Below the pieces are notes generated by a model. It was not told the DNA's origin. It saw nothing but the letters and a program-made list of their open reading frames with translations, and did not search any database. Positions 445-62,996 of a stretch of DNA of 64,000 nt are shown one piece after another. Source of the stretch: a virus (Duplodnaviria; Heunggongvirae; Uroviricota; Caudoviricetes); the IMG/VR virus record IMGVR_UViG_2834277561_000001, positions 122,688 to 186,687 of that record; one strand, given 5' to 3'. How positions within the stretch are numbered: position 1 is the first letter of the stretch; each line of letters starts with the position of its first letter. A program made the position numbers and the translations under genes.

Positions 445-560
445 AATGACCATGGTGGAATTTCTGGAAAGATATTTTGGTATGGAGTTTTTGCTGTACC
501 AGAAAATTATTTTAAATCGATTTGAGGAATCAATATCATCAAATTTAAACGAGGTGAAAA

Positions 561-1948: not shown

Positions 1949-1991
1949 TTCTAATAAAAATCCCCAATAAATGTGATCACAATTGAATATT

Positions 1992-2046: not shown

Positions 2047-2130
2047 AGCAGCACTAAAATTATTTTACGAAAGGAAAAGTAGAGTAATCCTAGGTAAAAT
2101 GCGTGTACACGCCTTGAAAAACAAGGCTTT

Positions 2131-3424: not shown

Positions 3425-3475
3425 AACATATATATGAAATTTTGTTTTCATCAATAAAAAAGGAGATGCAAAAGC

Positions 3476-4084: not shown

Positions 4085-4100
4085 AAATGTTGGGTGAAAA

Positions 4101-12612: not shown

Positions 12613-13526
12613 TGGAAAATGTAAATGTAATCGATCAGGCAATCGCAAATAGATATGCTCTTTATCATGGAGACAGTGTGGAAATCACAAAAGATATTCC
12701 AGATAATAGCATTCACTATACAATCTTTTCACCTCCGTTCTCGCAGCTTTATGTTTATTCAAATTCTGATAGAGATATGGGTAACTGTAAAGGTGACGAT
12801 GAATTTTATAATCATTTCAAATATCTGGCGAAAGAATTATACAGAATCACAATGCCAGGCAGACTTTTAAGCTTTCATTGTATGGATCTTCCATTAATGA
12901 AATCCAGAGATGGTGTTATTGGACTTAAAGATTTTCCTGCTCTGATGCTTAAAATCTTTCAGGATTGTGGATTTATTTATCATAGCAAAGTAACAATTTG
13001 GAAAAATCCTGTAACAGAAATGCAGCGTACAAAAGCATTAGGTCTTTTACATAAACAGATTAAAAAAGATAGTTCTATGAGTAGACAGGGACTTCCGGAT
13101 TATGTAATTACTGTAAGAAAACCTGGTGAAAATCCCGAAAGAGTAGAACATACAAATGAATCATTTCCTGTCGGGGTATGGCAGAATTATGCATCTCCTG
13201 TATGGATGGATATTCGTCAGAGTGATACATTACAGAGAAAATCTGCGAGAGCGGATCAGGACGAGAAACATATTTGTCCTCTTCAGTTGGAAGTTATTCA
13301 GAGATGTATTGAACTGTGGACAAACCCGAATGATATTGTTTTTGATCCATTTGGAGGAATTGGATCAACTCCGTATGTTGCTGTAAAAATGGGTAGACGT
13401 GGAATTGCGAGTGAATTAAAAGATAGTTACTTTGAACAGATGAAGAAAAATGTTGAATTGGTAGCTGCCGAAGAACCATCTCTTTTTCCTGTAGGAGAGA
13501 AAAGTATTGAGGATGTAGTCGCGTAA
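12612..13526 (+). CDS. DNA amino-methyltransferase, beta-class, probably N4-cytosine
   Basis: Motif IV FSPPF near the N-terminus and motif I VFDPFGGIGST near the C-terminus; forms a helicase-MTase pair with the gene upstream. Confidence 0.8.
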   Translation: MENVNVIDQAIANRYALYHGDSVEITKDIPDNSIHYTIFSPPFSQLYVYSNSDRDMGNCKGDDEFYNHFKYLAKELYRITMPGRLLSFHCMDLPLMKSRDGVIGLKDFPALMLKIFQDCGFIYHSKVTIWKNPVTEMQRTKALGLLHKQIKKDSSMSRQGLPDYVITVRKPGENPERVEHTNESFPVGVWQNYASPVWMDIRQSDTLQRKSARADQDEKHICPLQLEVIQRCIELWTNPNDIVFDPFGGIGSTPYVAVKMGRRGIASELKDSYFEQMKKNVELVAAEEPSLFPVGEKSIEDVVA

Positions 13527-20041: not shown

Positions 20042-20962
20042 TTGAAACTACAAATACAGTATTCGCCGTCGTTTTATAGTTGTATATCATTTGCATCGAA
20101 GAAAACAATAGATTTGTGTAATAAATTTATTTATAAAAATAGTGGAATTTACACAATAACAAATAAGATAAACGGACATAGATATATAGGTCAATCCAAA
20201 AATATATATCAAAGAATTAACTCGCATAAAAATCTTTTGAGAAATCATAGACATATATATAAAAACGGACAACCATCTTTGTTACAAAAAGCATGGGATA
20301 AATATGGTGAGGAAAATTTTGAATTTAAAGTTTTACAATTTTGCTCAGTAACTGAATTGAACAAAAATGAGCAATATTGGATAGATTTATATAATACGAA
20401 TAGAGCAAATGGTGGAATGGGATATAATTTGAACAACGGTGGTGCGGGCAGGAAACATAATTATTCTACTGTAAATGGTAAAATTGTTGTTAATAACGGT
20501 TCTATTCAAAAATTTATATATCCGAATGAATTAACAAAATATGAAGAGAATGGATATGTGCATGGAATTTTAGAAAAAAACAAACAAAAAATGATAAATA
20601 ATAGAGAAATATTATATGGTGAAAATCATCCCGCGTGGAATAAACCGTGGACGCAAGAACACAGGGATCGTATCATGGAGGGCGTTAAAAAGGCGCAAAA
20701 AGAAGGAAAATATAATTGGAAAAGAAAGAAACAATCAGAAGAAACAAAGAAAAAGAGGATTGACACATTAAAAAGTAAACCAGTTAATAAAAATTCATTA
20801 AAAGCACTTGAAAAGATTGCAAAAAATAAAAGAAAGAGTGTGGTTCAATTAGATATGGATTTAAATTATATTGCAACTTATAGTGGCGTTAATAAAGCGT
20901 CAGAAATAACTGGTGCCTCTGCTTCTGGAATATGTCAATGTTGTAAAGGAGCATTCCTGTAA
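20042..20962 (+). CDS. GIY-YIG homing endonuclease, I-TevI-like
   Basis: SGIYTITNKINGHRYIGQS...NFEFKV...NEQYWIDLYN; basic C-terminal DNA-binding region; GGAGGG followed by a TTG start. Confidence 0.75.
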   Translation: MKLQIQYSPSFYSCISFASKKTIDLCNKFIYKNSGIYTITNKINGHRYIGQSKNIYQRINSHKNLLRNHRHIYKNGQPSLLQKAWDKYGEENFEFKVLQFCSVTELNKNEQYWIDLYNTNRANGGMGYNLNNGGAGRKHNYSTVNGKIVVNNGSIQKFIYPNELTKYEENGYVHGILEKNKQKMINNREILYGENHPAWNKPWTQEHRDRIMEGVKKAQKEGKYNWKRKKQSEETKKKRIDTLKSKPVNKNSLKALEKIAKNKRKSVVQLDMDLNYIATYSGVNKASEITGASASGICQCCKGAFL

Positions 20963-21061
20963 TTCATTAAAAGCGCCAATTGAATAAAAAAGAACCTCAA
21001 GGTATGATTGAGTTGCATCTTGGCGGATGTAAACAAAACAATCAAGCACTGGAGGTTCCAA

Positions 21062-22351
21062 ATGAATTATACACAGAATGAAAAGATTGAGCAAGTAACA
21101 GATTCAACAATGGTTGTCGGAGTTGATATCGGAAGCCAGATACATTATGCAAGAGCTTTTGATAACAGAGGACGCGAACTTACAAAACGTATTTTTTCTT
21201 TTCATAACGATCTGGAAGGGTTCAATTCTTTCAACCTTTGGGCAGAGACACTTAAGACTGAGAATAAAAAGACTGCAGTTCTGATCGGCTGCGAGCCAAC
21301 AGGTCATTACTGGTTTGCGTTTGCGAAGTATGTAAATGATCATCAGAAAAGATTAGTAATGGTCAATCCATTCTCGGTTAAGAAGATCAAGGAACTTGAT
21401 GATAACAGTCCAAAGAAAACAGATTCAAAAGATCCAAAAACAATCGCAAAACTAGTTGTGGATGGGAGATATTCAATCCCATACATGCCAGAAGGCATTT
21501 ATGCCGAAATAAGAGACCTGGTATACAGCCGTGACAGGATCATGAAGCAGCACAACATATCTGCAAACAGGATCCAGAGATGGCTTGCAATACATTTCCC
21601 GGAATATCTGGGATTATACACACGATTTGATGCAATAAGCGGCCTGGCAGTGCTTGAAAAAGCACCATTGCCAAAAGATGTGATCGCGCTTGGAGTAAAT
21701 GGGATCCGAAAGATCTGGCATGATAAAAAGATGCGTGGCAGAGGAGTTACTGAAGATAGGGCAAAGACCCTGGTTGAAGCTGCGCACAACAGTGTTGGAC
21801 TTGACGGAGGGATTGGAACAAAAAGTGAATTATATATGCTGCTTGAAGAGCATCGCTTATGGACTTCGCAGTTAGAAGCCGTCAATAAAGTACTTGAGGA
21901 AATGATCCTAAAAGTACCACATGTGGAGAAGTTACTCGCCATTAAAGGAGTAGGGAGCATCACAATAGCAGGATTCATAGCTGAGGTAGGTGATATCAGA
22001 CGCTTTGATTCACCGAAACAGATCCAGAAGTATGCAGGACTGGAACTGGTAGAAAACAGTTCAGGAAAGCATAAAGGAAGGACGAGGATCAGCAAACGCG
22101 GGAGAAGGAAACTCAGAAAGATCCTGTATCAGGTAATGGTACCGCTGCTTGCAAGAAACAAGGAGTTCCGTGGAATCTATGATTACTATGTAACCCGTGT
22201 AAAGAATCCGCTGAAACGAAGGCAGGCAATGGTTGCCGTCAGCTGTAAGTTGATCCGAGTGTTTTATGCGGTATTAACGAAAGGTGTGGAGTATGACAGA
22301 TTTAAAATGATGTCAGATATCCACCGAAAAAGCGACATAATAGCTGCCTGA
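21062..22351 (+). CDS. IS110-family transposase
   Basis: N-terminal VVGVDIGSQIHYA (DEDD/RuvC-like) and C-terminal Transposase_20-like region AIKGVGSITIAGFIAEVGDIRRFDSPKQIQKYAGL; GGAGG ribosome-binding site. Confidence 0.85.
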   Translation: MNYTQNEKIEQVTDSTMVVGVDIGSQIHYARAFDNRGRELTKRIFSFHNDLEGFNSFNLWAETLKTENKKTAVLIGCEPTGHYWFAFAKYVNDHQKRLVMVNPFSVKKIKELDDNSPKKTDSKDPKTIAKLVVDGRYSIPYMPEGIYAEIRDLVYSRDRIMKQHNISANRIQRWLAIHFPEYLGLYTRFDAISGLAVLEKAPLPKDVIALGVNGIRKIWHDKKMRGRGVTEDRAKTLVEAAHNSVGLDGGIGTKSELYMLLEEHRLWTSQLEAVNKVLEEMILKVPHVEKLLAIKGVGSITIAGFIAEVGDIRRFDSPKQIQKYAGLELVENSSGKHKGRTRISKRGRRKLRKILYQVMVPLLARNKEFRGIYDYYVTRVKNPLKRRQAMVAVSCKLIRVFYAVLTKGVEYDRFKMMSDIHRKSDIIAA

Positions 22352-22794: not shown

Positions 22795-23721
22795 ATGCAA
22801 AAGGTTATAAATGGGTGTATGAAGACGAATATAAAGAGTTACAAAAACGGTAATTTTCGTACATTTATTGATTTAAATGATGGAACAAAAATTAGAGAAA
22901 CAGATGAAGATGAATTTATTGCAGACTTTGCAGAATCGATGGATGTAAAAATATGTAACTACTGTGATATTGGCTGCCCCATGTGCCACGAGGGAAGTAC
23001 AACAAAGGGCAAATTTGGAGACATTTTAAATGAGAAATTTATTCAAACACTTCATCCGTATCAAGAAATCGCGATAGGTGGAGGGGATGCCACAAGTCAT
23101 CCAGATTTAATTCCATTTTTATATGAACTTAGAGAAAAGCGAGTAATTGCAAACCTGACCGTGAATCAGATACATTTTGAAAAGAAACAGGATTTAATCA
23201 AAAAACTTGTTGATAATCACCTAATCTATGGTCTTGGCATTTCGCTAGTAAATCCTACTGAAAAATTTATTGAACTTGTAAAACAGTATCCGAATGCAGT
23301 TATTCACGTCATCAATGGTGTATTAAAGCCGGAAGATGTAAAAGCTTTGGAGAATAATAATTTGAAGATATTGATTCTTGGATACAAACATTTACGTCGA
23401 GGAAATGAGTATTTCGACGCAGCGCATGAAAAAATTGAGAAGAATCAAAAATGGCTATACGATAATCTTGAAGGAATGCTTGATAAATTCAAAGTGGTAA
23501 GTTTCGACAATCTGGCAATTGAGCAGCTTAACGTAAAGAGATTACTTAGCCAGGAAGAATGGGACGAATTTTATATGGGCAATGATGGTCAAAGTACATA
23601 CTATATTGACATGGTAGAGCGAAAATTTGCAAGAAGTTCAACAGCTCATATGAATAAAAGATATGATTTACTTGATTCTGTCGATGATATGTTCAATGTG
23701 ATTAGAATGGAGAATGATTAA
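22795..23721 (+). CDS. radical SAM domain protein
   Basis: CDIGCPMC (CxxxCxxC) and IGGGDATSHPDL glycine-rich SAM-binding motif. Confidence 0.7.
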   Translation: MQKVINGCMKTNIKSYKNGNFRTFIDLNDGTKIRETDEDEFIADFAESMDVKICNYCDIGCPMCHEGSTTKGKFGDILNEKFIQTLHPYQEIAIGGGDATSHPDLIPFLYELREKRVIANLTVNQIHFEKKQDLIKKLVDNHLIYGLGISLVNPTEKFIELVKQYPNAVIHVINGVLKPEDVKALENNNLKILILGYKHLRRGNEYFDAAHEKIEKNQKWLYDNLEGMLDKFKVVSFDNLAIEQLNVKRLLSQEEWDEFYMGNDGQSTYYIDMVERKFARSSTAHMNKRYDLLDSVDDMFNVIRMEND

Positions 23722-24282: not shown

Positions 24283-24753
24283 ATGATTTACAAATTAACA
24301 TTAGGTGATTGGTCAAAGGATGGGCATGAACAATATCGAGAATTCTTATTTGACTGTAACTATGGTGTTCATAAGATCCGTCAGGCATATAAAGATAGTT
24401 GCAAAAAATTAGGGATTTCATTTAATCATAACTCCGATTATACAGAATTAGGACTTCGTTTCAGAGATGAACGTCAGATATGGACTGAATATGAGGATGA
24501 GAACATAAGTGAATTTGCCTTTAATGTTTTAAAAACAGAAGGATGTCTTGATAATATTGATTATCATGAAGAAGATGGTGAATATTTTATTGAAGGATAT
24601 TCTGAATGTGCAATACTCATTATGAATTTTATTGCATTATCCATGCCTAACGATTTCGAGTATAAACTGGTAGAAAAAGAAGACTACGAGCCTATTAATG
24701 GATGGTGGAATGATGAATTGAACGAGCAATTTGGATATGGATTGTTTTATTAA
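24283..24753 (+). CDS. hypothetical protein
   Basis: ORF of 156 aa with GAGGTG ribosome-binding site. Confidence 0.55.
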   Translation: MIYKLTLGDWSKDGHEQYREFLFDCNYGVHKIRQAYKDSCKKLGISFNHNSDYTELGLRFRDERQIWTEYEDENISEFAFNVLKTEGCLDNIDYHEEDGEYFIEGYSECAILIMNFIALSMPNDFEYKLVEKEDYEPINGWWNDELNEQFGYGLFY

Positions 24754-24765
24754 AAGGATTGTTTT

Positions 24766-25089
24766 ATGAATTTTTATAGAGAACTAACTTCTGACGAACA
24801 GGTGGTATATAAATCACTTTTTCGTGGAGATAAAAGTAACTATGTTCCAGAAGAAATTAATGGAAAATCTGCTAATAGCTGCGACTATCATGCCATGACT
24901 CATGCTCATACAGAAATATTAGGTGTTTTCTGCGACAATACTGCAACATCAGATCAGGAATTAAGAGAAATACTTACTATAGGACTTTCTGAATGGCGAA
25001 AAAGATGCCTAAATGCTGACTGTATATCTTGTGCGTGGTACAGACAACAAGAAAACCCATGTGAAATTTGTAATGATTGCTATGACTGA
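24766..25089 (+). CDS. hypothetical Cys-rich protein
   Basis: ORF of 107 aa. Confidence 0.5.
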   Translation: MNFYRELTSDEQVVYKSLFRGDKSNYVPEEINGKSANSCDYHAMTHAHTEILGVFCDNTATSDQELREILTIGLSEWRKRCLNADCISCAWYRQQENPCEICNDCYD

Positions 25090-25093
25090 TTTG

Positions 25094-25393
25094 ATGGAGA
25101 ATAAAATGTGTGTATGTAAAAATGGATATGAATTACAAAAAGATTTGAAACCACCACAGCGTTGTCATTCTGATGAACAATGCTATATTGATTCATGTAA
25201 AGAATGTAGTGCTTACGATCACAGATATGACATTATTGATCAAGCAATTGAATCTGCGAAATGCAGAATTTACAGATTAAAAGCTAATCGAGGTGAAAGT
25301 TTTGCTCATCAGAAAAAAGCAGAAAATCAAATTCAGCTTATGAATGTAACAATTGATGCACTTAAGTATTATAAAGAGAATCTATATATGTAG
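25094..25393 (+). CDS. hypothetical Cys-rich protein
   Basis: ORF with ATG start just after the upstream stop. Confidence 0.45.
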   Translation: MENKMCVCKNGYELQKDLKPPQRCHSDEQCYIDSCKECSAYDHRYDIIDQAIESAKCRIYRLKANRGESFAHQKKAENQIQLMNVTIDALKYYKENLYM

Positions 25394-26959: not shown

Positions 26960-27685
26960 TTGACTGTACTTAGAAGAGGGCCAGATTTAATTAAAAAGGA
27001 TGGGAAAAAACAGACTAGGTGGTACTGTTCCTGTGATTGTGGAAGTGATAAAGAAGTGTTGGTTCTTGGATACAATTTAAAAAATGGAAATACAACTTCT
27101 TGTGGATGTGAACATTTAAAAAATGCAATGAGAAGCGGAAAATTAACAGGAAGAATAAATGGCAAAAGGAATAAAAAATTTAATTCTTATGATTTGTCAA
27201 GAGAATATGGAGTAGGGTTTACGTCTAAAAATGAAGAATTTTACTTTGATTTAGAAGATTACGATAAGATTAAAAATTATTGTTGGCATATAAATAATGA
27301 TGGATATGTTGCTAATAAAACAGAAGAAGGATGCATTCTAATGCACAGATTAGTAATGGGATTGTCGAAAGGGGATCACCGGGAAGTAGATCATATATAT
27401 CATAAAACTAATGATAATAGAAAAGATCAATTAAGAATAGTTTGTTCTTCTGAAAATAAGATGAATCAAGGTATTCCTTCAAATAATACTAGTGGATATA
27501 GAGGTGTTTATTATGATAAGCAGTATGATAGATGGTCGGCAGAAATTGTAGCTTATAACCATAAATTTCGACTAGGGTATTTTACTAACAAATCCGACGC
27601 TGTTAAAGCAAGAAAACAAGCAGAGGAAAAATATTTTGGAGAATATAATTATCGAGGAGGTGATGCATCCTATGAAAAACCTTAA
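26960..27685 (+). CDS. HNH homing endonuclease with AP2 DNA-binding domain
   Basis: HNH block DHREVDHIYHKTNDNRKDQLRIVCSSENKMN; AP2 block SGYRGVYYDKQYDRWSAEI...RLGYF..KSDAVKARKQAEEKY; N-terminal LTVLRR; TTG start, with the true start possibly upstream and non-canonical. Confidence 0.8.
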   Translation: MTVLRRGPDLIKKDGKKQTRWYCSCDCGSDKEVLVLGYNLKNGNTTSCGCEHLKNAMRSGKLTGRINGKRNKKFNSYDLSREYGVGFTSKNEEFYFDLEDYDKIKNYCWHINNDGYVANKTEEGCILMHRLVMGLSKGDHREVDHIYHKTNDNRKDQLRIVCSSENKMNQGIPSNNTSGYRGVYYDKQYDRWSAEIVAYNHKFRLGYFTNKSDAVKARKQAEEKYFGEYNYRGGDASYEKP

Positions 27686-28785
27686 AGTTATCATAGGAGC
27701 CTGAGAATTTTGGGGATGAGGGAAAAGGAATGATGACAGATTTCTTTTCCCAGAAATCAAACAGCATTGTAGTGTGTTCAAACGGCGGAGCACAACGCGG
27801 ACATACCGTAGTAACTCCAGATGGAATCAGACATGTCTTTCATCATTTTGGTTCCGGAGCATTTAATGGAGCAAGCACGTATTTACCAGAAGATTTTATC
27901 TTAAATCCAGTTGTTTTCCGCCAGGAATTACACGAGCTTTACAGAGTAAAGCATCTTCCCGCAACATATATTCATAATGATTGTATGGTCACAACTCCAT
28001 GGGATATGATGGCAAATCAGATTGTTGAAGAAAGTCGTGGTAAGAATAAACATGGAAGTTGTGGCATGGGAATTTTTGAAACAATTACACGCTACAAGGC
28101 GGGAGTAGTTGATTTAGATTCTTCTATTCGCGATTATTATTTGGAACGGTTTTCGGAAGAAAATATACAGTTATCTGATTCATGGAAAACTCTTATTATG
28201 AATGATGATATATTCGATCATTTCTTAGATGATTTGGATTTTATGAACGAATATTGTTCTGTAATTTCTGATGACTATTTTCTAAATCTATTCGATAACA
28301 TTGTATTCGAGGCAGGACAGGGTTTACTACTTGATCAGAACAATCTTGAATATTTTCCAAATTTAACTCCTTCAAATACAGGCATTAAAAATCCTAAGAA
28401 AATTATTGAACGTGTTGAGTGGAATGATGAGATCGAGATAGAAACCTGTTATGTTACAAGAACATATATGACGAGACACGGTGCGGGCAAGTTTCCTACT
28501 GAATGTAATAAATCGGTAATTAATGGAAAAATGTTTGATAAAACAAATGTACCTAATATTCATCAGAATTCATTAAGATACGGAACATTAGATTACGAAG
28601 AATTATGTAGTAGATGTTCAAACGATGTTAAAGATTTTGGGGATAAAAAATCTATTGCTATCACACATTGCAATGAATTTCCATATGATTCAAATAAAAT
28701 CTCTGAAATATTTAAAGGATGGGATATTTACTATTCTAATGGAGAAATTCGGGACAGTATCAATAGAAAGTGTGATAGTTTATGA
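27672..28785 (+). CDS. adenylosuccinate synthetase homologue (PurA/PurZ-like), N-terminus requires a +1 frameshift at 27702
   Basis: Frame A reads MKNLKVIIGA then TGA; the +1 frame reads ENFGDEGKGMM..VVCSNGGAQRGHTV...FEAGQGLLLD...TRHGAGKFPTE, matching E. coli PurA MGNNVVVLGTQWGDEGKGK..GGHNAGHT..FEGAQGTLLD..TRVGAGPFPTE. Confidence 0.7.
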
Positions 28786-29078
28786 AAAAAGATAATAGAG
28801 AAATTCATATTTGGTTAGACGATCCGCCGTGTATAGTGAATGCATGTACTTCATATTTTTGTACTAGAGATTTATTTGATATAAATGAGAAAATTATTCA
28901 CACTACGCAAACACATTTTTGTTCGTTCAGATATCATAGAAGAATTTTTGTACATGTAAATGGTGGTGTACATGAAATTAAAATTGGTGAAACAGAAGGT
29001 ACGAATAGGGAAATTCGCGAAGGACATAATATTGAGAAAATGTTATTTGCTGGAGAATTTGACTGGTTTAGGGAGTAA
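28782..29078 (+). CDS. hypothetical protein
   Basis: ORF of 98 aa. Confidence 0.5.
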   Translation: MKKDNREIHIWLDDPPCIVNACTSYFCTRDLFDINEKIIHTTQTHFCSFRYHRRIFVHVNGGVHEIKIGETEGTNREIREGHNIEKMLFAGEFDWFRE

Positions 29079-29083
29079 AGAAA

Positions 29084-29452
29084 ATGTCTACAGGATTTAA
29101 TTGGTTTAAGTCATATAAAATCACAATCCATCGAGCAACAAAAATGTGGGATTGGGATGAACACAAGATTGAATATATAGGTGGAGGTAGTACTTCTCAT
29201 TCAGGACATAATATTTCAGTTGTTCAAGATCTTATTGAAAAATATAGTGGAAAGAGAATTCCTACAATAGAAGAAGATTTTATAAGTTCAGAAGATGAAA
29301 ATTTGCATTTAATTAATCCGAAAGAAATGTCAGAAATTTGTGAAAGAATATTATCTGGAAATGAAGTAAACGAAACAGACCTGAGAAGTCGTATTCAATG
29401 GTTCAAAACCTTGTCGGATGAAGGATATTATCTATCGTATGATTATATGTAA
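29084..29452 (+). CDS. hypothetical protein
   Basis: ORF of 122 aa. Confidence 0.5.
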   Translation: MSTGFNWFKSYKITIHRATKMWDWDEHKIEYIGGGSTSHSGHNISVVQDLIEKYSGKRIPTIEEDFISSEDENLHLINPKEMSEICERILSGNEVNETDLRSRIQWFKTLSDEGYYLSYDYM

Positions 29453-29487
29453 TAGAATGAAATCAGAGTTTTGAGGGATGTAATAAT

Positions 29488-29775
29488 ATGTGGAAAAGAA
29501 ATAGCGATATTTTCCCTGGTGAATGGGTTGGTACGTATCATGAAAAAGAATTGGAAAAAGAATTAGAAATAGGTGATCACGCAAAAGTAATTGTTGATTC
29601 TCAATTTCAAGATTATTTTATCAATACTGGCAAAAAATATCCAAGAGCTATTGGGAAAATTGGGATTGTTAAGAAAATTTGTACAGATGATGAATGGGCG
29701 TATTTCTTATCATTTGGACACGAGATGTGTTCAAATTGGTTTAAAAGATATTCCTTAGAAAAAATTGAAAGTTAG
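29488..29775 (+). CDS. hypothetical protein
   Basis: ORF of 95 aa. Confidence 0.5.
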   Translation: MWKRNSDIFPGEWVGTYHEKELEKELEIGDHAKVIVDSQFQDYFINTGKKYPRAIGKIGIVKKICTDDEWAYFLSFGHEMCSNWFKRYSLEKIES

Positions 29776-29787
29776 AGGATGTAATAC

Positions 29788-29985
29788 GTGAGAAAATATT
29801 TAATGGAAGTAGATCGATTTATAGGTATAGATACTTATGATCCAGACGCATGTGAAAAATGTAAATATGGATTCGATACGGAGTCTAAAATGGTAGATTT
29901 TATCAAAAATGAATTAGGATTTTTTGATGAAATACGAGGCATCTATAAATTAGAAAAAATTGATCCTAAAAAATACAATAATTAA
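29788..29985 (+). CDS. hypothetical protein
   Basis: ORF of 65 aa. Confidence 0.45.
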   Translation: MRKYLMEVDRFIGIDTYDPDACEKCKYGFDTESKMVDFIKNELGFFDEIRGIYKLEKIDPKKYNN

Positions 29986-30020
29986 GATTCTGAAATGCGT
30001 GTTTCAAGGAGGTGTTGAAA

Positions 30021-30371
30021 ATGATTCATATATGTGTCGGAAGAGAATGTAACGATTATATAGATTGTGATAAAAAGGACATATGCAAGTATTCGCGAAA
30101 TAAAAGGTTTCCAATGAGCGTATTTAATCTATTTTTGCTATATAAGAGAGATAATAGACTTAGTGGCACTTCTAAATGTCCATATCATAAAAGTCGAAAT
30201 TATACGTGTTGGGATTGCGCTCATCAAACAAATTGGGAAGAATGTGATGTAGTTCCAAAAGATAGACTTCCGTATGTTGCACAGGATGGATGGAAAGACT
30301 ATAGCAGATGTGGAAGTTTTAAGAAAGCAAACTATGCGAATGATTATTTGTACGAAGAATATAAATATTAG
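30021..30371 (+). CDS. hypothetical Cys-rich protein
   Basis: AAGGAGGTG ribosome-binding site followed by ATG. Confidence 0.5.
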   Translation: MIHICVGRECNDYIDCDKKDICKYSRNKRFPMSVFNLFLLYKRDNRLSGTSKCPYHKSRNYTCWDCAHQTNWEECDVVPKDRLPYVAQDGWKDYSRCGSFKKANYANDYLYEEYKY

Positions 30372-30383
30372 AAGGATTATAAA

Positions 30384-30647
30384 ATGAAAAGATTAACTAT
30401 TCAGGAGTTTCCACGTACTGACATATTATGGAATAAAGTAAATGAAATCATTGACTATATCAATAAAAAAGAAAACAACAATCCAGAGTCGTTATATGCA
30501 ATTAAAAATATCGAAACTGGAGAAATCATTTTCAATGCACGTGGTGGAGCGTATCAAAACAAAGAAGCAGCAATTAGCAAATGTTTAGAATTAGGGCAAG
30601 AAACGCATAAATTAGTAGAGTACAAATTGAGTGAGGAACAATTATGA
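30384..30647 (+). CDS. hypothetical protein
   Basis: ORF of 87 aa. Confidence 0.5.
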   Translation: MKRLTIQEFPRTDILWNKVNEIIDYINKKENNNPESLYAIKNIETGEIIFNARGGAYQNKEAAISKCLELGQETHKLVEYKLSEEQL

Positions 30648-35062: not shown

Positions 35063-35344
35063 ATGATTATTACAGGAATGAATCACTTCCAGAGAGTATG
35101 TTTAAAGAAAATGGTTGAATGGTACAACGCAGATGCCGATATTTACCATACGCGGCAAAGGATTAATCTTGATGATGTATTTGTAGTATGGAGTTGCAAA
35201 ACATTACAGAATTATAAATGTCTAGTATCCACAACGGTTTCTGGTGATGGCATTTACGCGGAATATACATATAATGGGGACAAACAAGAACTTTATGAAG
35301 ATGTATATAAGAAACTTACAAATACTTGCATTACAGAAGAATAG
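35063..35344 (+). CDS. hypothetical protein
   Basis: ORF of 93 aa. Confidence 0.5.
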   Translation: MIITGMNHFQRVCLKKMVEWYNADADIYHTRQRINLDDVFVVWSCKTLQNYKCLVSTTVSGDGIYAEYTYNGDKQELYEDVYKKLTNTCITEE

Positions 35345-35353
35345 GGGAAAAAA

Positions 35354-35608
35354 ATGAAACCAATTGTGTTTTATGATTTTGACCATGTATATCAGAACGA
35401 AATCACTATTAAGAAGGATAAATTCGAAAAATTGCTTAAAGATGTTTACAATGCAGGATTTGAAGATGGAAGAAGAGATTCGCATTTGTATTTTTCGAAT
35501 CCTCCGAGAAATGGGGAATGGGAAATTACATGTGGCAGCAATGTGAAAAGAGATCCGATAAACGGCTCATTACATATGGGAACAACAAAAGTCTCTGACA
35601 AAATTTAA
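35354..35608 (+). CDS. hypothetical protein
   Basis: ORF of 84 aa. Confidence 0.5.
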   Translation: MKPIVFYDFDHVYQNEITIKKDKFEKLLKDVYNAGFEDGRRDSHLYFSNPPRNGEWEITCGSNVKRDPINGSLHMGTTKVSDKI

Positions 35609-35690
35609 CCACGAAATTTATTTTTCATTATTATAAAAATTAAATCTTTATTTATTTCTAACGCCTTAATTCAAGGCAATTTTCCAAAAA

Positions 35691-36479
35691 TTGAATTCAA
35701 AATTAAATAAGAAAGTAGGTGTCATTGTTATAAAAGATGATATTTTAACAAATGGCAAATGGGAATTTGATGATAATGTGGCAGCATGTTTTGAAGACAT
35801 GCTCTCACGATCAATCCCCCAATATGACATTATGCGAAAATCTATTCTCGATTTAGCTTCTATACGAATCAACAAAATATTACAGCGATATTCAGATGAT
35901 GATTTATCTATTTGTTCGCAACCATTTTCATTGTTAGACATTGGATGTTCCGATGGGTTACAAATTTCGGATTTCTTGTCTCGTTATAATCACGGACACT
36001 ATGTTGGAATAGATATATCTGAGCCGATGTTAAGAAAAGCGAGAGAACGTTTTGAATATGAAATTAAAACAGGGGTTGTTTCGATTTCTCATATGGATTT
36101 GAGAAAAGAATTTCCGAGAGAATATTTTGACATTATCACTTCTACGCTATGTATTCAATTCACGCCTATTGAATATAGACAAGAAATTCTATCAAACGTG
36201 TATAAATCATTAAATCATGAAGGGATTTTTTTGATGGTTGAGAAAGTACTTGGTGAAACATCTGCTCTTAATAATATGTTTGTTGAAAATTATTATAATC
36301 TCAAAAAGACTAACGGATATACACAAAATCAAATAGATAGAAAAAAATTATCTCTTGAAGGAGTATTGGTTCCCTGTACAAACAAATGGAATGTTGAATT
36401 ATTACATCAAGCAGGATTTAGACAGGTCGATGTATTTTGGCGATGGATGAATTTTGTTGGATATATTGCAATTAAATAG
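35691..36479 (+). CDS. CmoA-like carboxy-S-adenosyl-L-methionine (Cx-SAM) synthase homologue
   Basis: WEFDDNVAACFEDMLSRSIPQY matches E. coli CmoA [22 protein letters not shown]; motif I LLDIGCSDG; C-terminal NGYTQNQIDRKK...AGF..VDVFWRWMNFVGYIAIK matches CmoA NGYSELEISQKR...AGF..SELWFQCFNFGSLVALK; TTG start. Confidence 0.75.
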   Translation: MNSKLNKKVGVIVIKDDILTNGKWEFDDNVAACFEDMLSRSIPQYDIMRKSILDLASIRINKILQRYSDDDLSICSQPFSLLDIGCSDGLQISDFLSRYNHGHYVGIDISEPMLRKARERFEYEIKTGVVSISHMDLRKEFPREYFDIITSTLCIQFTPIEYRQEILSNVYKSLNHEGIFLMVEKVLGETSALNNMFVENYYNLKKTNGYTQNQIDRKKLSLEGVLVPCTNKWNVELLHQAGFRQVDVFWRWMNFVGYIAIK

Positions 36480-36494
36480 GGGGGCAAATATAAT

Positions 36495-37676
36495 ATGCTG
36501 AATGTATTTGAAGGATTTTCTGGGATTGGCGTATTTACAATTGCTCTTGAAGAAATGGGAATAGAATATAATCTCATTGGGACAAGCGAAGTTGACAAAT
36601 ATGCTATCCTGTCTTACGATGCAATTCATAATAAATCTATAAAATTATCTAATGATAATTTGTCTGATAATCAGATGATTTCATATTTAAAAAAAATAAA
36701 TGTCGGTTATAATTTCTCAACTGGCAAATCTGAAATTCCAAAACAGCATGATGAAATATTAAGATTATATAGTTCATGTAAAAACATAAGAAATTATGGG
36801 GATATTAGAAAAATCAATACCAATAATCTTCCTGATATTGATTTGTTTACATATTCATTTCCATGTAAAAATATTACCAATGAGGGACAGCAATTAGGAT
36901 TCGAAAAGGATAGTGGTACGCAATCATCATTAGTTTGGAATTGTGAACCAATAATTAAATACAAAAGACCTAAATTTCTTATTATGGAAAATGTTAAAAA
37001 TATTATCAGCAAGACGCATATATCTATATTCAATGAATGGTGTACCACATTATCGGCATATGGATATAAAAATTATTGGAAATTATTTAATGCAAAAAAA
37101 TATGGCATTCCACAAAACCGAGAACGAGTTCTTATGATATCTATTCTAAATGATTCTATTGATTTCAAAATTCCCAACGAAATTCCATTACAATTGTCAT
37201 TAATTGATGTACTCGAAAAGAATAAAGTCGATTCAAAATATTATATTGATATTAACGAAGCATTTAATGGATTGATCAGCAATTTAAGGTTTAATAATGG
37301 ATATCCTGTAGTAGATGTTCGAGAAGCAACTAAAAAAGGATATACAGAAGCGACGATTGGTGACACTATTAATGTAGCTCATTATAACAGCAAAACAAGA
37401 AGGGGCAGAGTAGGACATAGCGTTGCCCAAACTTTGACCACTACTTGTTATCAACACGTATTAGAATTGGATGGCTCTGTTAGACGTTTGACACCAAAAG
37501 AATGTTGGAGATTGCAATTACTAGATGATAAATATTTTGATTTGGTCAATGAAATCGCTAAAATTCCAGAAACAAAATTGTATGAACGCGCAGGAAGGAC
37601 AATACCTATAACTATTGTTAAAGAAATATATAAAAATCTATTTAGGAGTATTTTAGATGAGAAAAATCATAGATGA
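36495..37676 (+). CDS. DNA cytosine-C5 methyltransferase-like enzyme with variant motif IV PCK
   Basis: Motif I FEGFSGIGVF, motif IV SFPCKNIT (PCK where PCQ is usual), motif VI MENVKN, motif VIII IPQNRERV; lies immediately downstream of the CmoA-like gene. Confidence 0.8.
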   Translation: MLNVFEGFSGIGVFTIALEEMGIEYNLIGTSEVDKYAILSYDAIHNKSIKLSNDNLSDNQMISYLKKINVGYNFSTGKSEIPKQHDEILRLYSSCKNIRNYGDIRKINTNNLPDIDLFTYSFPCKNITNEGQQLGFEKDSGTQSSLVWNCEPIIKYKRPKFLIMENVKNIISKTHISIFNEWCTTLSAYGYKNYWKLFNAKKYGIPQNRERVLMISILNDSIDFKIPNEIPLQLSLIDVLEKNKVDSKYYIDINEAFNGLISNLRFNNGYPVVDVREATKKGYTEATIGDTINVAHYNSKTRRGRVGHSVAQTLTTTCYQHVLELDGSVRRLTPKECWRLQLLDDKYFDLVNEIAKIPETKLYERAGRTIPITIVKEIYKNLFRSILDEKNHR

Positions 37677-38454
37677 CTTTTTAGAAGAAAAAATAAGAGA
37701 TAAAAATTCTGTTGCTATTTTATTTAGCGGGGGATTAGATAGTTTGTCATTGTTATTATCTTGCCTGGATATTGGTATAAAACCCGTTTTATATACATTT
37801 TTTTTGGAATCATATGAATCTAGTGATATTAAAAGTTCTAGGAATATAGCGAAAATTTTTGGATTAAAGCTTATTGAAATTCCTATTAAACAAGATTTAA
37901 AGACATTAATTAATGATGTTGAGTATATTGTAACTAATTTTAACACTTATAAAAAATCAGCTGTTCAATGTGTTCATCCTTTTCTATACGCAGAAAAACT
38001 TATAAAAGAAAAATATGTTTTAAGTGGTTTATGTGCAGATGATTTATATGGAACATCTAAACATATGAGTATACTCTCAAAAAATTACGAGGAATTCCAA
38101 AGAAAAAGACTAGATATTATCTCTGATGAAACATCCTCTGGATATAGATATATTAAATCAATCTTTCACAACAAAATATTTATCGCACCTTACAAGGAAT
38201 GTCGAAAATTAATTGATTATTTTATGTCCTTAGATTATAAATCAATGAATTCTCCGAAGCAAAAATATGTTACGTATAGTGCATATCGCAACGTAATAGA
38301 TAGATATAAATTATATCGCAGAAATGAAAACTTGCAATGTGCTTCAAAAATACGGGAATACCATGATAGTTTGTTAAAAACAGATTTAAATACCAACAAT
38401 TACAAAATAGTAACTCCTATATATAGGAATTTGTATTTAGAATATCATAATTAA
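37657..38454 (+). CDS. PP-loop ATP pyrophosphatase, asparagine-synthetase C-domain-like amidoligase
   Basis: PP-loop ILFSGGLDSLSLLL and GLCADDLYG (AsnB GADELFGGY-like); no glutaminase domain; overlaps the MTase gene end by 20 nt. Confidence 0.65.
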   Translation: MRKIIDDFLEEKIRDKNSVAILFSGGLDSLSLLLSCLDIGIKPVLYTFFLESYESSDIKSSRNIAKIFGLKLIEIPIKQDLKTLINDVEYIVTNFNTYKKSAVQCVHPFLYAEKLIKEKYVLSGLCADDLYGTSKHMSILSKNYEEFQRKRLDIISDETSSGYRYIKSIFHNKIFIAPYKECRKLIDYFMSLDYKSMNSPKQKYVTYSAYRNVIDRYKLYRRNENLQCASKIREYHDSLLKTDLNTNNYKIVTPIYRNLYLEYHN

Positions 38455-38481
38455 ATTTGTAATAAATAGGGGGATGATTCT

Positions 38482-38619
38482 ATGACAGCAAAAGAAAAAT
38501 TAATAGACTATGGATATGAAGATGTAAAGTTGCTTTCTTATTACACTTTTGATGATGCTTTAATTGGTGTAATACATGATAATCGCGCAGTTTACGATTA
38601 CAACAAAATGATTGAATGA
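38482..38619 (+). CDS. small hypothetical protein
   Basis: 45-aa ORF with TAGGGGGATG ribosome-binding site. Confidence 0.35.
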   Translation: MTAKEKLIDYGYEDVKLLSYYTFDDALIGVIHDNRAVYDYNKMIE

Positions 38620-38654
38620 CTAATTAATTATGATCATTGTAATGAAGATGATAA

Positions 38655-39014
38655 ATGTTTAATATAGGAGATAAAGTGTTTCACATTGGGAATGATTATA
38701 TTCCTATAGATTATGTAGAAATTTTAGCAAAACCAGATAAAGAGAAACTGTATTACAAAATTCGTAGCTTTGATTTTGGTGGGACTTATGGGGGATTTCC
38801 GGATGATCTATTTTACGATAGAGAACTGGCTTCAAAAAAATTAAAAGAAAGAGAATTGCATAGACAGAAAGAAATTACTAAAAATATAAAGTCAGTTGGT
38901 GATTTATTGCAAATGATGTATGAATGTATGTTTTGCGAAGAATACACGGACTACGATAAGATTATGGTTGCGAGGCAAAAAGCCAAGGAATTATGTAATA
39001 TTGAATTAAAATAA
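38655..39014 (+). CDS. hypothetical protein
   Basis: ORF of 119 aa; an alternative GTG start at 38682 has an AGGAG ribosome-binding site. Confidence 0.5.
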   Translation: MFNIGDKVFHIGNDYIPIDYVEILAKPDKEKLYYKIRSFDFGGTYGGFPDDLFYDRELASKKLKERELHRQKEITKNIKSVGDLLQMMYECMFCEEYTDYDKIMVARQKAKELCNIELK

Positions 39015-40161: not shown

Positions 40162-41007
40162 ATGCCAGCACATGATGATTTAGGGCTTCGAATGAAGACA
40201 TTTTATGAACAGATTCCAAAAACGAGGCTAATGAGAAGGTGTCCAGTTGCCATCAGGATTGATGGGAAAGCTTTTCATACGTTTACGAGAGGATTCCAAA
40301 AACCATTTGATGAGGTATTAATCAAATCAATGCAGCAAACAATGAAATACCTATGTGAAAATATTCAGGGATGTGTACTTGGATATACGCAATCAAATGA
40401 GATTACATTGATTCTTGTGGACTATAAGAAGCTCACATCTTCTGCATGGTTTGACTATGAAGTGCAGAAAATGTGTAGTATTGCTGCGAGTATGACAACT
40501 ATGGCATTTAATAGGGCTTTTGCTAAGAATGTAGGAGATTATTGTACATATAATTACGAATGTATGGATAATACTCATGAAAACTATGAACATATTTTAT
40601 CTTTAGCAGTTGATAAGGGTGCAATGTTCGATGCCCGTTGTTTTAATATTCCAAAAGAAGAAGTAACAAATCTCGTATATTGGAGACAACTTGACGCATC
40701 TCGTAATTCGATTCAGATGTTGGGACAGGCTAATTTTTCTCATAGTGAACTTCAGAATAAGTCATGTAATGATATTCAGGATATGCTAATGATGCAAAAG
40801 GGAATAAATTGGAATGATTTGCCAGTATATCAGAAGAGAGGAAGTTGTTGTGTAAGAAATAAGATAGTTGTTAAGTCCAATGGTATTATGGAAACAATAC
40901 AATTAAGAGACACTTCTAAATCTGAAAATGAGTGGATTGTTGATAAAAATATTCCGATTTTTAGAGGTGAAGACAGGAACTATATTGACAAGTTAATTTA
41001 TGTTTAA
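40162..41007 (+). CDS. tRNA(His) guanylyltransferase-like protein (Thg1/TLP family 3'-5' nucleotidyltransferase)
   Basis: VAIRIDGKAFHTFT..KPFD...GYTQSNEITLIL matches the Thg1 core VVRLDGRNFHRF..KPND...AYGQSDEYSFV. Confidence 0.7.
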   Translation: MPAHDDLGLRMKTFYEQIPKTRLMRRCPVAIRIDGKAFHTFTRGFQKPFDEVLIKSMQQTMKYLCENIQGCVLGYTQSNEITLILVDYKKLTSSAWFDYEVQKMCSIAASMTTMAFNRAFAKNVGDYCTYNYECMDNTHENYEHILSLAVDKGAMFDARCFNIPKEEVTNLVYWRQLDASRNSIQMLGQANFSHSELQNKSCNDIQDMLMMQKGINWNDLPVYQKRGSCCVRNKIVVKSNGIMETIQLRDTSKSENEWIVDKNIPIFRGEDRNYIDKLIYV

Positions 41008-48457: not shown

Positions 48458-49486
48458 ATGATGATTGAAGAAATCAAACAGAAAGTTGCGAGTAAAGAAT
48501 ATAACTTTTTAAGAGAAAATGAACACCTTGGAAAGAATATTATTCTTCTTGGACTTGGTGGAAGCCATGCATACGGAACGAACACGGAAAGTTCTGATCT
48601 CGATGTTCGTGGTATCGCAGTTAATAGAAAAGAAGAAATATTATCAAATATTCGTTTTGAACAGTTTGTTAATGAAGAAACGGATACGACAATTTATTCG
48701 TTTAACAAAATAATTGCGTTGTTGTCAAATTGCAATCCTAATACAATCGAAATCCTTGGATTAAAGCCGGAACATTACCTTTATATCAATTCTGTAGGAA
48801 AAGAATTGCTTAATAATTCACATATGTTTTTATCAAAAAAATGTGTGCAATCATTCGGCGGTTATGCAAATAGCCAGTTGCGAAGGCTAGACAATAAAGC
48901 AGTTCGTCTTGTAGGACAGGCAGAAAGAGAGAATCATATATTAAATAGTATTAAAAATGCTTTTGCAACTTTTCCTGATAAATATTTTCCATTTAAAGAT
49001 GGTGATATTAAACTCTATATAGATAAAGCCGTACAGGAAGATTATGATACCGAAATTTTCATGGACGTTAATTTGACACACTATCCACTAAGAGATTACA
49101 AATCTATGTGGTCTGAAATGAATAATATTGTGAAAGATTATTCCAAAATCGGCAAGCGGAATAAGCACGCAATTGAGCATGAAAAACTTGGCAAACATAT
49201 GATGCATTTGGTTAGATTATTTTACACATGTTTTGATATTCTTGAAAATGAAAGAATTGTTACGTATAGAAAAGAAGAACATGATTTGCTCATGGATATT
49301 CGAAATGGCAAATATCTTGATGATAATCGACAGCCAATACCGGAGTTCTTTGAGTTAGTGGATGAACTCGAAAAACGATTAGATTATGATAAAGTAAATA
49401 CATCTCTTCCAGATAAACCAGATTATAAGAGAATTAATGATTTTGCAATTTCCGTCAATGAACGGATTGTAAAAGGAGAATTATAA
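48458..49486 (+). CDS. nucleotidyltransferase-fold (Pol-beta superfamily) protein
   Basis: GLGGSHAYGTNTESSDLDV matches the GS-x(n)-DxD NTase signature. Confidence 0.5.
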   Translation: MMIEEIKQKVASKEYNFLRENEHLGKNIILLGLGGSHAYGTNTESSDLDVRGIAVNRKEEILSNIRFEQFVNEETDTTIYSFNKIIALLSNCNPNTIEILGLKPEHYLYINSVGKELLNNSHMFLSKKCVQSFGGYANSQLRRLDNKAVRLVGQAERENHILNSIKNAFATFPDKYFPFKDGDIKLYIDKAVQEDYDTEIFMDVNLTHYPLRDYKSMWSEMNNIVKDYSKIGKRNKHAIEHEKLGKHMMHLVRLFYTCFDILENERIVTYRKEEHDLLMDIRNGKYLDDNRQPIPEFFELVDELEKRLDYDKVNTSLPDKPDYKRINDFAISVNERIVKGEL

Positions 49487-50673: not shown

Positions 50674-50747
50674 TGGGCATTCGCCAAGCGGTAAGGCACA
50701 GCACTTTGACTGCTGCATTTTCGTTGGTTCGAATCCAACATGCCCAG
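50674..50747 (+). tRNA. tRNA-Gln (anticodon UUG)
   Basis: Acceptor TGGGCAT/ATGCCCA, D-arm GCCAAGCGGTAAGGC, anticodon stem CAGCA/TGCTG with loop CTTTGAC, T-arm GTTGGTTCGAATCCAAC; close to E. coli tRNA-Gln. Confidence 0.8.
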
Positions 50748-50751
50748 TTAA

Positions 50752-50832
50752 GCGGATATGGCGGAATGGCAGACGCAGAAAACTCAAAATCTTCCGGAGA
50801 AATTCGTGTGGGTTCAAGTCCCACTATCCGTA
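50752..50832 (+). tRNA. tRNA-Leu (anticodon CAA) with long variable arm
   Basis: Acceptor GCGGATA/TATCCGT, anticodon loop CTCAAAA, long variable arm, T-arm TGGGTTCAAGTCCCA. Confidence 0.7.
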
Positions 50833-51148
50833 TTAGGCTAATATTTGTAAGTAAGTTGCTGAAGCGCAAGGTGATTGAAAACAAAATTAGGCCTAAAGTT
50901 ATAACTTTTAACGCGTGTTGTGATCTGGAACCGAGTAAAGTTGGGGCTACGGCATACTGGTTGTATGGTTTGGGTATGCATTTTTTGAGTCAACTACAAT
51001 GACGAGGGTTGTGGTGAAATGGCGAGGATGTCGGGGTAACGCCGATGTGTAGTCGTAGTTGATTAGAAATATCTTTCAAGTTCAGTGCAACGAGAGAAAG
51101 ATGAACAGAACGTAAGCTTAGTATATCTTTCCTTTCTAGCATTAAACC
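50833..51148 (+). other. structured non-coding region between tRNA-Leu and the tRNA-like element
   Basis: No credible ORF; multiple inverted repeats such as GCATAC..GTATGC and AGTTG..CAACT; ORFs reported here overlap tRNAs or are low-complexity. Confidence 0.3.
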
Positions 51149-51219
51149 TGCTCGTTGGTGCAATGGTAGCACAATGGGGACGACTCCTAGTGATAAAGGT
51201 TCGATTCCTTTGCGGGCAA
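51149..51219 (+). tRNA. tRNA-like element: canonical acceptor, D-arm and T-arm but aberrant anticodon arm (pseudo-tRNA or noncanonical tRNA)
   Basis: Acceptor TGCTCGT/GCGGGCA with two G-U pairs, D-arm GTGCAATGGTAGCAC, T-arm AAAGGTTCGATTCCTTT; anticodon region ATGGGGACGACTCCTAG lacks U33. Confidence 0.3.
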
Positions 51220-62443: not shown

Positions 62444-62982
62444 TGAAACAATATTATACAGATAAGCATTACAAAGAATTGCTATCCCACATGATAATTT
62501 TGGTAGACACTCGAGATCAAACTAACGGTGAAATCCTTGAGTGGTTTACCAAACATAAAGTGAGATGGAAGACAAAAGCGTTAAAAACAGGCGATTACGG
62601 GCTAATGATAGAGTCATGTCCAGAGTTAGGATTTCTCACAGATACCTATTTCACAGATGAACTGTGTATTGAACGCAAAAATTCAGTATCAGAATTAGCG
62701 GGCAATTTCTCTAATGTATTAAAAGATGACGACAGAATCTTTAAAGAGTTCAATCGTATGATAAATATCGAGAGAAACTTCCTATTAATAGAAAATGATA
62801 ATATAGGAGATATCATAGACCGTAACTACCGCTCAAAACTTAATCCAGATTCATTTTTGCGGGCATTGTTGACATGGCAGCACAGAAATAATATGCACAT
62901 ATATTTTGTTCCCAAAAAGCATATGGGTAAAATGATATATGAAATTTGTAAGAATTGCCTGGACTCAAAAATATTAAGATAA
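62443..62982 (+). CDS. ERCC4/Hef-like PD-(D/E)xK nuclease (putative junction resolvase)
   Basis: ILVDTRDQ, GDYGL and CIERKNSVSEL resemble the ERCC4 VDxRE..GDY..ERKxxxDL motifs. Confidence 0.4.
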   Translation: MKQYYTDKHYKELLSHMIILVDTRDQTNGEILEWFTKHKVRWKTKALKTGDYGLMIESCPELGFLTDTYFTDELCIERKNSVSELAGNFSNVLKDDDRIFKEFNRMINIERNFLLIENDNIGDIIDRNYRSKLNPDSFLRALLTWQHRNNMHIYFVPKKHMGKMIYEICKNCLDSKILR

Positions 62983-62996
62983 AAGGAATAAATAAC

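Follow-up and report, generated by a model that had tools for sequence, protein, structure and literature searches.

A candidate cytosine carboxymethylation cassette of the CmoA-CmoX-CmoY kind in a metagenomic tailed phage, with an M.MpeI-like methyltransferase homologue

Why would a phage carry a CmoA-like gene directly ahead of a DNA cytosine methyltransferase homologue and a stand-alone amide ligase? This question was raised by a 64,000-nucleotide stretch of a Caudoviricetes genome (IMG/VR record IMGVR_UViG_2834277561_000001, positions 122,688 to 186,687), hereafter the window, in which three genes, called here cmoA-like, cmoX-like and cmoY-like (products A, X and Y), follow each other on one strand (Table 1). 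A first-pass annotation had described them as adjacent, co-oriented and overlapping, and as a candidate system for the carboxymethyl or carbamoylmethyl modification of cytosine. The adjacency, orientation and coordinates were right; as read from the sequence, only the second and third genes overlap (20 nt), and the first and second do not, being separated by a 15-nt spacer.

The answer that we consider likely is that these genes work together as a cassette of the CmoA-CmoX-CmoY kind, which hypermodifies DNA after its replication. Such a system was described in December 2025 in the Synechococcus phage S-B43 (Yang et al., Nat Commun 2025;17:281; PMC12783734), in agreement with the first-pass remark that a natural phage system of this sort was at most very recently described. 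In S-B43, the phage CmoA (SpCmoA) makes carboxy-S-adenosylmethionine (Cx-SAM); CmoX (SpCmoX) accepts Cx-SAM only, and carboxymethylates cytosine C5 at GC sites in double-stranded DNA, giving 5-carboxymethylcytosine (5cxmC); and CmoY (SpCmoY), an AsnB-like ligase without amidase domain, joins glycine to yield 5gcxmC, which was found in virion DNA (PMC12783734). In the 1.9 Å structure of SpCmoX (8YF3), Arg350 replaces Asn304 of M.HhaI and contacts the carboxymethyl group, and the R350N variant is dead (PMC12783734). Moreover, 5,615 CmoX candidates (retrieved by a filter combining an SPPC motif with R350), 4,257 CmoA and 2,251 ligases were reported (PMC12783734). The window resembles S-B43 in holding the same three enzyme classes in one tight cluster, in the identity of 26% between A and SpCmoA (E 4e-22), in the Arg of X at the R350 position, and in the similar size of Y and SpCmoY, both without a glutaminase domain. 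The core chemistry proposed at first pass, leading from Cx-SAM to carboxymethylated cytosine C5 and then to an AsnB-like amidation, would be that shown biochemically for these homologous genes (PMC12783734). The first-pass annotation had left the substrate as DNA or deoxycytidine monophosphate; by analogy with SpCmoX, which was assayed on double-stranded DNA, the former would be favoured over the latter.

In the pathway that we propose, the CmoA-like enzyme would convert host S-adenosylmethionine (SAM) and prephenate into Cx-SAM, as its homology indicates. X would flip the target cytosine out of double-stranded phage DNA, its Cys124 would attack C6, and the carboxymethyl group of Cx-SAM would be transferred to C5, yielding 5cxmC, a step to which the residues at the key positions, their covariation and the gene neighbourhoods described below all point. 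Arg368 in motif X, and probably Lys125 in motif IV, would hold the extra carboxylate of the cofactor, plain SAM being disfavoured. Finally, Y, as suggested by its homology to SpCmoY, would adenylate the new carboxylate with ATP and link it to an amine through an amide bond. Glycine, or some other small amino acid or amine, is the most likely partner, and free ammonia a less likely one. The expected gain would be a phage genome that resists host restriction and other DNA-targeting defences.

Regarding A, the end-to-end similarity to CmoA claimed at first pass held when the protein was compared with the NCBIfam model TIGR00740 (CmoA), which was matched at E 4.2e-41 and 141.2 bits over profile positions 9-239 of 239. 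CmoA was the top family, about 90 bits above every other methyltransferase model, a result that speaks against a generic class I methyltransferase; Pfam returned generic class I methyltransferase domains only. The best matches in PDB were Haemophilus influenzae YecO (1im8, E 2e-24) and Escherichia coli CmoA (4gek, E 1.9e-21), and phrog_4752 was matched at E 7e-64. Furthermore, the N-terminal W-x-F-D...F..M...S-x-P-x-Y segment is present as KWEFDDNVAACFEDMLSRSIPQY, the DIGCSDG motif is present, and in the alignment A conserves the equivalents of the SAM-binding residues D62, G64, S66, D89 and D117 of E. coli CmoA. Compared with the tRNA pathway of E. coli, in which CmoA and CmoB build uridine-5-oxyacetic acid (cmo5U), the Cx-SAM synthase step is homologous, CmoB is missing from the window, and the predicted acceptor is the C5 of a DNA cytosine, reached through a C5-methyltransferase fold, and not 5-hydroxyuridine in tRNA.

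X is a cytosine-C5 methyltransferase (C5-MTase) homologue (PF00145, E 4e-56) whose motif IV reads SFPCK at residues 121-125, as the first-pass annotation had noted in pointing to PCK in place of the usual PCQ. The residues C124, E165-N166-V167, Q207, R209 and R211 (motif IV, the ENV of motif VI and the QxRxR of motif VIII) are invariant in 27 homologues. By sequence, the best PDB match is M.MpeI (4dkj, E 4.5e-34, 28% identity), and the predicted model of X, with a predicted local distance difference test score (pLDDT) of 91.6, has C5-MTases as its top fold matches, 4dkj again being the best (E 3.8e-28, query TM-score (TMq) 0.75); SpCmoX (8yf3) appears as the 37th fold match, with TMq 0.58. X scores 220-301 bits against canonical Asn-type relatives of the M.MpeI kind and 42 bits against SpCmoX; the latter is closest to M.HaeIII.

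The decisive position lies in motif X, where AGRTIP of X aligns with AGNSIP of M.MpeI (N374) and GNSV of M.HhaI (N304). Moreover, ERAGRTIP of X aligns with ERVGRMVP of SpCmoX, so that R368 matches the R350 that contacts the carboxymethyl group. In M.HhaI, Q82 adjoins N304 beside the transferable group, and both residues were modelled close to the extended side chain of AdoMet analogues (PMC3526304). In a set made of X and its 120 best homologues from a collection of 5.8 billion proteins, in which the residue after PC and the motif X residue were classified, 104 combined Lys with Arg, one Arg with Arg and 17 Gln with Asn, with no mixed pair. Neighbouring residues shift too, from PCQD...YKQAGN to PCKN...YERAGR. 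The suggestion made at first pass, that PCK may be an adaptation to a carboxylated cofactor, gains from this perfect covariation with the motif X Arg; the published determinant, which had escaped notice at first pass, is the motif X Arg and not PCK alone. SpCmoX has Ser at the motif IV position after PC, and the Lys is thus particular to the lineage of X.

In a neighbour-joining tree, which is rough and not a robust phylogeny, the 107 Lys/Arg sequences formed one clade with no Asn-type member inside and with SpCmoX outside. X represents a second lineage of predicted DNA carboxymethyltransferases, probably independent of SpCmoX. Only 2 of 104 other Lys/Arg-type homologues carry SPPC, and a search that demands SPPC to the letter would leave out almost the whole clade.

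Engineered enzymes offer a further comparison. DNA carboxymethyltransferases were obtained in the Kohli laboratory from M.MpeI (N374K) and M.CviPI (Y205K/R), and the Cx-SAM activity of the engineered M.MpeI comes from the cationic N374K change (PMC13288465). X shares the M.MpeI scaffold and is cationic at the N374 position; unlike the engineered enzyme, it is natural, carries Arg and not Lys, and replaces the Gln of PCQ by a cationic residue as well. Likewise, the two covarying positions of the X clade are two of the three that lie against the transferable group in M.HhaI Q82A/Y254S/N304A, a variant made to take bulky SAM analogues (Lukinavicius et al., 2012; PMC3526304), where space was opened with alanines, whereas the X clade installs two cationic side chains, a pattern that suggests charge pairing with a carboxylate. 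As regards target specificity, the CpG-reading residues of M.MpeI lie in loop 1 (T301-E305) and loop 2 (G322-R326) (PMC10899764), and its loops TFNSE and SGANSR are replaced in X by HYNSK and TCYQH. As the recognition-loop residues are not conserved, a CpG specificity inherited from M.MpeI cannot be assumed. X shares the scaffold of the M.MpeI/M.SssI-type CpG methyltransferases but, with Arg for N374 and the CpG loops not kept, is by its sequence no functional member of that type.

Contextual evidence came from the gene neighbourhoods of X relatives. We analyzed 80 IMG/VR loci encoding such relatives, together with look-ups of three Lys/Arg and three Gln/Asn homologues. The Lys/Arg signature occurred in 6 of the 80 loci, and a CmoA homologue directly adjoined the methyltransferase gene in all six. 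At the remaining 74, PC is followed by Gln, Thr or Ile, motif X has Asn wherever this was readable (about 67, the remainder being truncated or split open reading frames (ORFs)), and a CmoA homologue was found within 6 kb at none of them. In the additional look-ups, a CmoA-like gene with TIGR00740 as top family stood beside the Lys/Arg enzyme in 3/3 (L085, L089 and L090), and none (0/3) of the Gln/Asn controls had a CmoA neighbour. Pooled, a CmoA neighbour was present at 9/9 other Lys/Arg loci and at 0/77 canonical relatives (Fisher 2e-12). A regular-expression scan had returned apparent Lys/Arg-type motif X sequences without CmoA at L027, L033-35 and L044; these were spurious, proper alignment showing GN in all of them.

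The nine CmoA-like partners of related methyltransferases scored 115-196 bits on TIGR00740, always with CmoA as the top family. Gene order varied, being A-X-Y in the window, A-Y-X in S-B43 and L012, and Y-X-A in L085, and the flanks differ among the window, L003, L004 and L095, which argues that the cassette moves as a unit. In the locus L089 (positions 100-5086; a 73.9-kb phage-like contig, ENA ERZ28594470), three C5-MTase paralogues of the PCK type, of which two or more have ERAGR, occur with a cmoA gene, and a 3-deoxy-7-phosphoheptulonate (DAHP) synthase gene (NF006421, 406 bits, above the cutoff) is located between the paralogues, beside cmoA. Since this enzyme is the entry to the shikimate pathway leading to prephenate, the L089 phage may boost prephenate for Cx-SAM synthesis; no DAHP synthase gene was found in the window.

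The first-pass assignment of Y to the AsnB-type PP-loop ligases, based on SGGLDS and GxxDDLYG, agrees with what was found: the protein has SGGLDS at residues 24-29 and GLCADDLYG at residues 124-132, aligns with the N-terminal portion of the synthetase domain of asparagine synthase (PF00733, E 3e-8) and, in TIGR01536, with the synthetase part only (profile 238-385), and has an AsnB-type predicted fold. It also matched phrog_26038 (E 3e-35), and a sequence search of PDB gave no match at E up to 0.01. The AlphaFold2 model (pLDDT 96.9) was closest to the synthetase domains of E. coli AsnB, human asparagine synthetase (ASNS), beta-lactam synthetase and carbapenam synthetase, mostly with TMq 0.7-0.79 (0.72-0.79 for the AsnB, ASNS and beta-lactam synthetase domains), and fitted LarE and TilS much less well (TMq 0.3-0.46). 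Y and SpCmoY align over their full length, with 30% identity over 247 residues (E 2e-31), and Y keeps all 20 invariant columns of a family that includes SpCmoY. In an all-against-all BLAST aimed at the glycine cluster, the largest of the ligase clusters of Yang et al., the best link from the Y clade to SpCmoY was of 35% identity and 155 bits, which by our estimate falls under the threshold of Yang et al. Among relatives, the CmoY homologue of L003 (7166-7986) is split into two ORFs, by a frameshift or an assembly error, and that of L004 (7166-8149) is extended to 327 aa.

The end product is where the first-pass annotation and the present analysis part. It had proposed 5-carbamoylmethylcytosine, which would arise by the same pathway if the ligase used free ammonia, and we regard this outcome as unlikely, though it is the alternative that fares best. 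Free ammonia is usable by AsnB-family synthetase domains, and the Y clade differs from SpCmoY at near-invariant positions (YRR at 220-222 and IREYH at 232-236 against VKD and IDHLF), at 30-35% identity, so that a different nucleophile is possible. Against this, Y has no glutaminase domain and matches the glycine-ligating SpCmoY in architecture and length (265 versus 271 aa), and glutamine-derived ammonia was assigned to a separate cluster of ligases with an amidase domain (PMC12783734). The carbamoylmethyl product is disfavoured on these grounds.

Several observations weigh against the CmoA-CmoX-CmoY reading as a whole. Every step of the pathway is predicted from homology, from patterns of residues and from the linkage of genes. 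The score of A (141.2 bits) is under the curated TIGR00740 cutoff of 193.3 bits, a threshold calibrated on cellular orthologues; since the biochemically validated SpCmoA of S-B43 scores lower still, at 115.6 bits, the sub-cutoff score is no argument against function. In E. coli CmoA, Arg199 is the sole side chain that contacts the Cx-SAM carboxylate (PMC4482062), and A has Lys in its place, which is basic but not Arg. Positions 199 and 203 covary in ten homologues, as (R/K, E) or (E/N, R), always leaving a basic side chain on that helix face, and the active SpCmoA itself carries the swapped pair (E, R). X and SpCmoX share only 21% identity (42 bits, E 1e-8), and motif IV is SFPC-Lys in the former and SPPC-Ser in the latter, so that the preference for Cx-SAM is extrapolated across lineages; SPPC served Yang et al. 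as a bioinformatic filter, with no functional requirement shown. The linkage statistic is not phylogenetically independent, as the Lys/Arg enzymes are one clade.

The ligase adds two further points of this kind. In the co-occurrence check advised at first pass, cmoA kept its place beside the Lys/Arg enzyme, as described above, and the ligase did not: a CmoY homologue accompanies A and X in L003, L004, L012, L085 and L095, and is absent from half of the Lys/Arg loci (L005, L006, L008, L089 and L090), a patchiness that fits the picture of an optional second step given by Yang et al. Moreover, in Bacillus cereus (GCA_900176975.1; L093:5001-5822), a 53%-identical CmoY homologue stands beside a phage integrase gene, with no methyltransferase/CmoX or CmoA found within 5 kb, which suggests that the ligase family may have other substrates.

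If the three genes were unrelated neighbours, namely an ordinary SAM-dependent methyltransferase producing 5-methylcytosine, a class I methyltransferase of generic type and a PP-loop enzyme without connection to either, then the Pfam result taken alone, with its generic domains in A, the sub-cutoff CmoA score, and the presence of several other ordinary DNA methyltransferases in the window would be readily accommodated. We hold this to be very improbable, given that SpCmoX takes Cx-SAM only as wild type and is inactive as R350N (PMC12783734). Furthermore, motif X has Asn in every canonical (Gln/Thr/Ile-type) relative examined and Arg in X, CmoA is by far the best model for A, matched end to end, and the signature and CmoA adjacency go together at all nine other Lys/Arg loci and at none of the 77 canonical ones. 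That the CmoA-like enzyme serves mainly tRNA cmo5U via a host CmoB, its classical role, or depletes host SAM as anti-defence, finds some favour in the tRNA genes, the Thg1-like enzyme and the RlaP-like RNA-repair protein of the window, and deserves hardly any credence, as no CmoB gene was found there (as already stated at first pass; tblastn with E. coli CmoB over the 64 kb, best E 0.78), the window tRNAs are Gln-UUG, Leu-CAA and Ser-CGA, none of which is known as a cmo5U-bearing tRNA, and the CmoA gene keeps company with that of the Arg-bearing X homologue in relatives whose flanks otherwise differ. SAM depletion, raised by Yang et al. as a possible side effect (PMC12783734), would be a possible additional effect and not an alternative to the hypermodification cassette.

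Table 1. Location of the cassette genes, of the residues discussed and of translation signals in the window
Feature	Position	Strand	Description
cmoA-like gene (A)	35691..36479	+	262 aa as listed, TTG start; predicted Cx-SAM synthase
Lys219 codon of the cmoA-like gene	36345..36347	+	Aligns with E. coli CmoA Arg199
GGGGG, Shine-Dalgarno-like run	36480..36484	+	In the 15-nt A/X spacer; cmoA-like stop TAG 36477-36479, cmoX-like ATG 36495
cmoX-like gene (X)	36495..37676	+	393 aa; C5-MTase homologue of the M.MpeI-like lineage, predicted DNA cytosine C5-carboxymethyltransferase
Cys124 (catalytic) and Lys125 codons, motif IV PCK	36864..36869	+	Lys125 at the position of HhaI Gln82
Arg368 codon, motif X AGRTIP	37596..37598	+	Position of SpCmoX Arg350, HhaI Asn304 and M.MpeI Asn374
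AGGAG, Shine-Dalgarno	37644..37648	+	Inside the 3' end of cmoX-like, 8 nt upstream of the cmoY-like ATG
cmoY-like gene (Y)	37657..38454	+	265 aa; stand-alone asparagine-synthetase-type PP-loop AMP-forming amide ligase, without glutaminase domain
SGGLDS PP-loop codons	37726..37743	+	ATP pyrophosphatase signature in the cmoY-like gene

Concerning expression, the overlap between cmoX-like and cmoY-like suggests translational coupling. No terminator-like sites were found in 35300-38800, and a promoter scan around the cassette gave sites no more numerous than in shuffled sequence. All window ORFs of at least 200 aa are on the + strand, and the whole window is transcribed rightward. The start of the cmoA-like gene is insecure, as seen when the region 35691-35800 of the window was compared with 5150-5320 of L003 and L004: both relatives have an in-frame stop after the position of the TTG of the window, and neither has ATG, GTG or TTG ahead of the conserved N-terminal KWEFDxNVAxCFEDM segment. 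An in-frame ATA (window 35730), 8-10 nt past a Shine-Dalgarno-like AGGTG/GGGAG, is conserved in the three sequences. In another relative, L084, the metagenome gene caller had shortened cmoA to 167 aa.

The phage is known only from metagenome contigs, its relatives having 12.6, 76.7, 120 and 180 kb, and megablast of 15 kb around the locus gave no match among GenBank phages. Contigs of 120-180 kb imply that the phage genome exceeds the 64-kb window. L084 encodes a transferase identical to X with the same gene layout, the 120-kb relative (L095) encodes a ligase about 99% identical to Y, and L003 and L004, the two closest IMG/VR relatives, are about 82% identical to the window at the protein level. 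The window has a G+C content of about 33%, an excess of A over T on the + strand (24126 versus 18919), and a GC skew that is positive in every 2-kb bin and declines rightward, from about 0.3 to about 0.1. Its gene content includes a primase-helicase, the DNA polymerase III alpha subunit, Sak and homing endonucleases. Based on the 33% G+C and on relatives in Clostridium (Clostridium sp. GCA_032505195.1) and Bacillus records, the host is probably a low-GC Firmicute-like bacterium and not a cyanobacterium. Observed/expected ratios were 0.91 for CpG and 1.05 for GpC, both near expectation.

Other genes of the window also relate to nucleic acid modification. Three further DNA methyltransferase genes (2131-3084, 8309-9082 and 12612-13526) comprise one canonical C5-MTase, Asn-type and SAM-using, with GSPCT as motif IV and IGNG as motif X, and two N6/N4 methyltransferases (PF01555); the phage thus appears to stack several DNA modifications. 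An adenylosuccinate-synthetase homologue resembling PurZ (27730-28785; phrog_1211 '2-aminooxy adenylosuccinate synthetase', E 4e-59; PF00709, E 6.5e-25) hints at DNA containing 2-aminoadenine (Z base). The P-loop of this homologue, GDEGKG, is encoded in frame shortly before the first ATG and right behind a stop codon. With an HNH homing-endonuclease gene (26960-27685) as its immediate upstream neighbour, the PurZ-like gene may be interrupted or mis-started; Rfam over the window returned tRNAs only, with no intron model near this gene. By Pfam, no MazG-like partner was found among the five ORFs downstream (28782-30647) and the three upstream (24283-25393), and an HD-domain protein is encoded at 62955-63635.

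RNA-repair-type genes occur near the cassette (40162-41007, 48458-49486 and 50674-51219), including a Thg1-like tRNA-His guanylyltransferase homologue, an RlaP-family nucleotidyltransferase and the tRNA genes Gln(UUG), Leu(CAA) and Ser(CGA); in L095 (4224-6392), a T4 Rnl1-type RNA ligase gene and a kinase-like gene lie upstream of the same cassette instead. Additionally, a GIY-YIG endonuclease gene followed by an IS110-family transposase gene (PF01548, PF02371) was identified at 20042-22351, within the phage replication-region gene array, and a radical-SAM-like gene at 22795-23721.

Already in December 2025, Yang et al. had published this type of system, with its mechanism and its broad occurrence, and what is new here is modest: a distinct monophyletic M.MpeI-like lineage in which the Lys + Arg signature and cmoA go together without exception at the loci examined, a diverged ligase clade, and a DAHP synthase gene in a relative. 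A bolder joint reading, which we put forward tentatively and think doubtful in its full extent, would combine a second natural lineage within the M.MpeI-like enzymes, of independent origin, a cationic clamp of Lys and Arg, a non-GC target of its own, and a ligase amine that is maybe not glycine, giving an undescribed hypermodification that may be combined with 2-aminoadenine through the PurZ-like gene.

In brief, no new field is opened by this cassette. If our interpretation is true, natural cytosine carboxymethylation would extend beyond the single enzyme lineage characterised so far, and phages whose hosts are low-GC and probably gut-associated would have arrived at this chemistry by recruiting another methyltransferase scaffold. 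The sequence rule that emerges (Lys after PC, motif X Arg and an adjoining cmoA) could find such enzymes in sequence data, and could guide the engineering of carboxymethyltransferases with new specificities for epigenomic sequencing, where the engineered M.MpeI N374K is already in use. In the same way, the amine joined by the ligase could define a new modified base.

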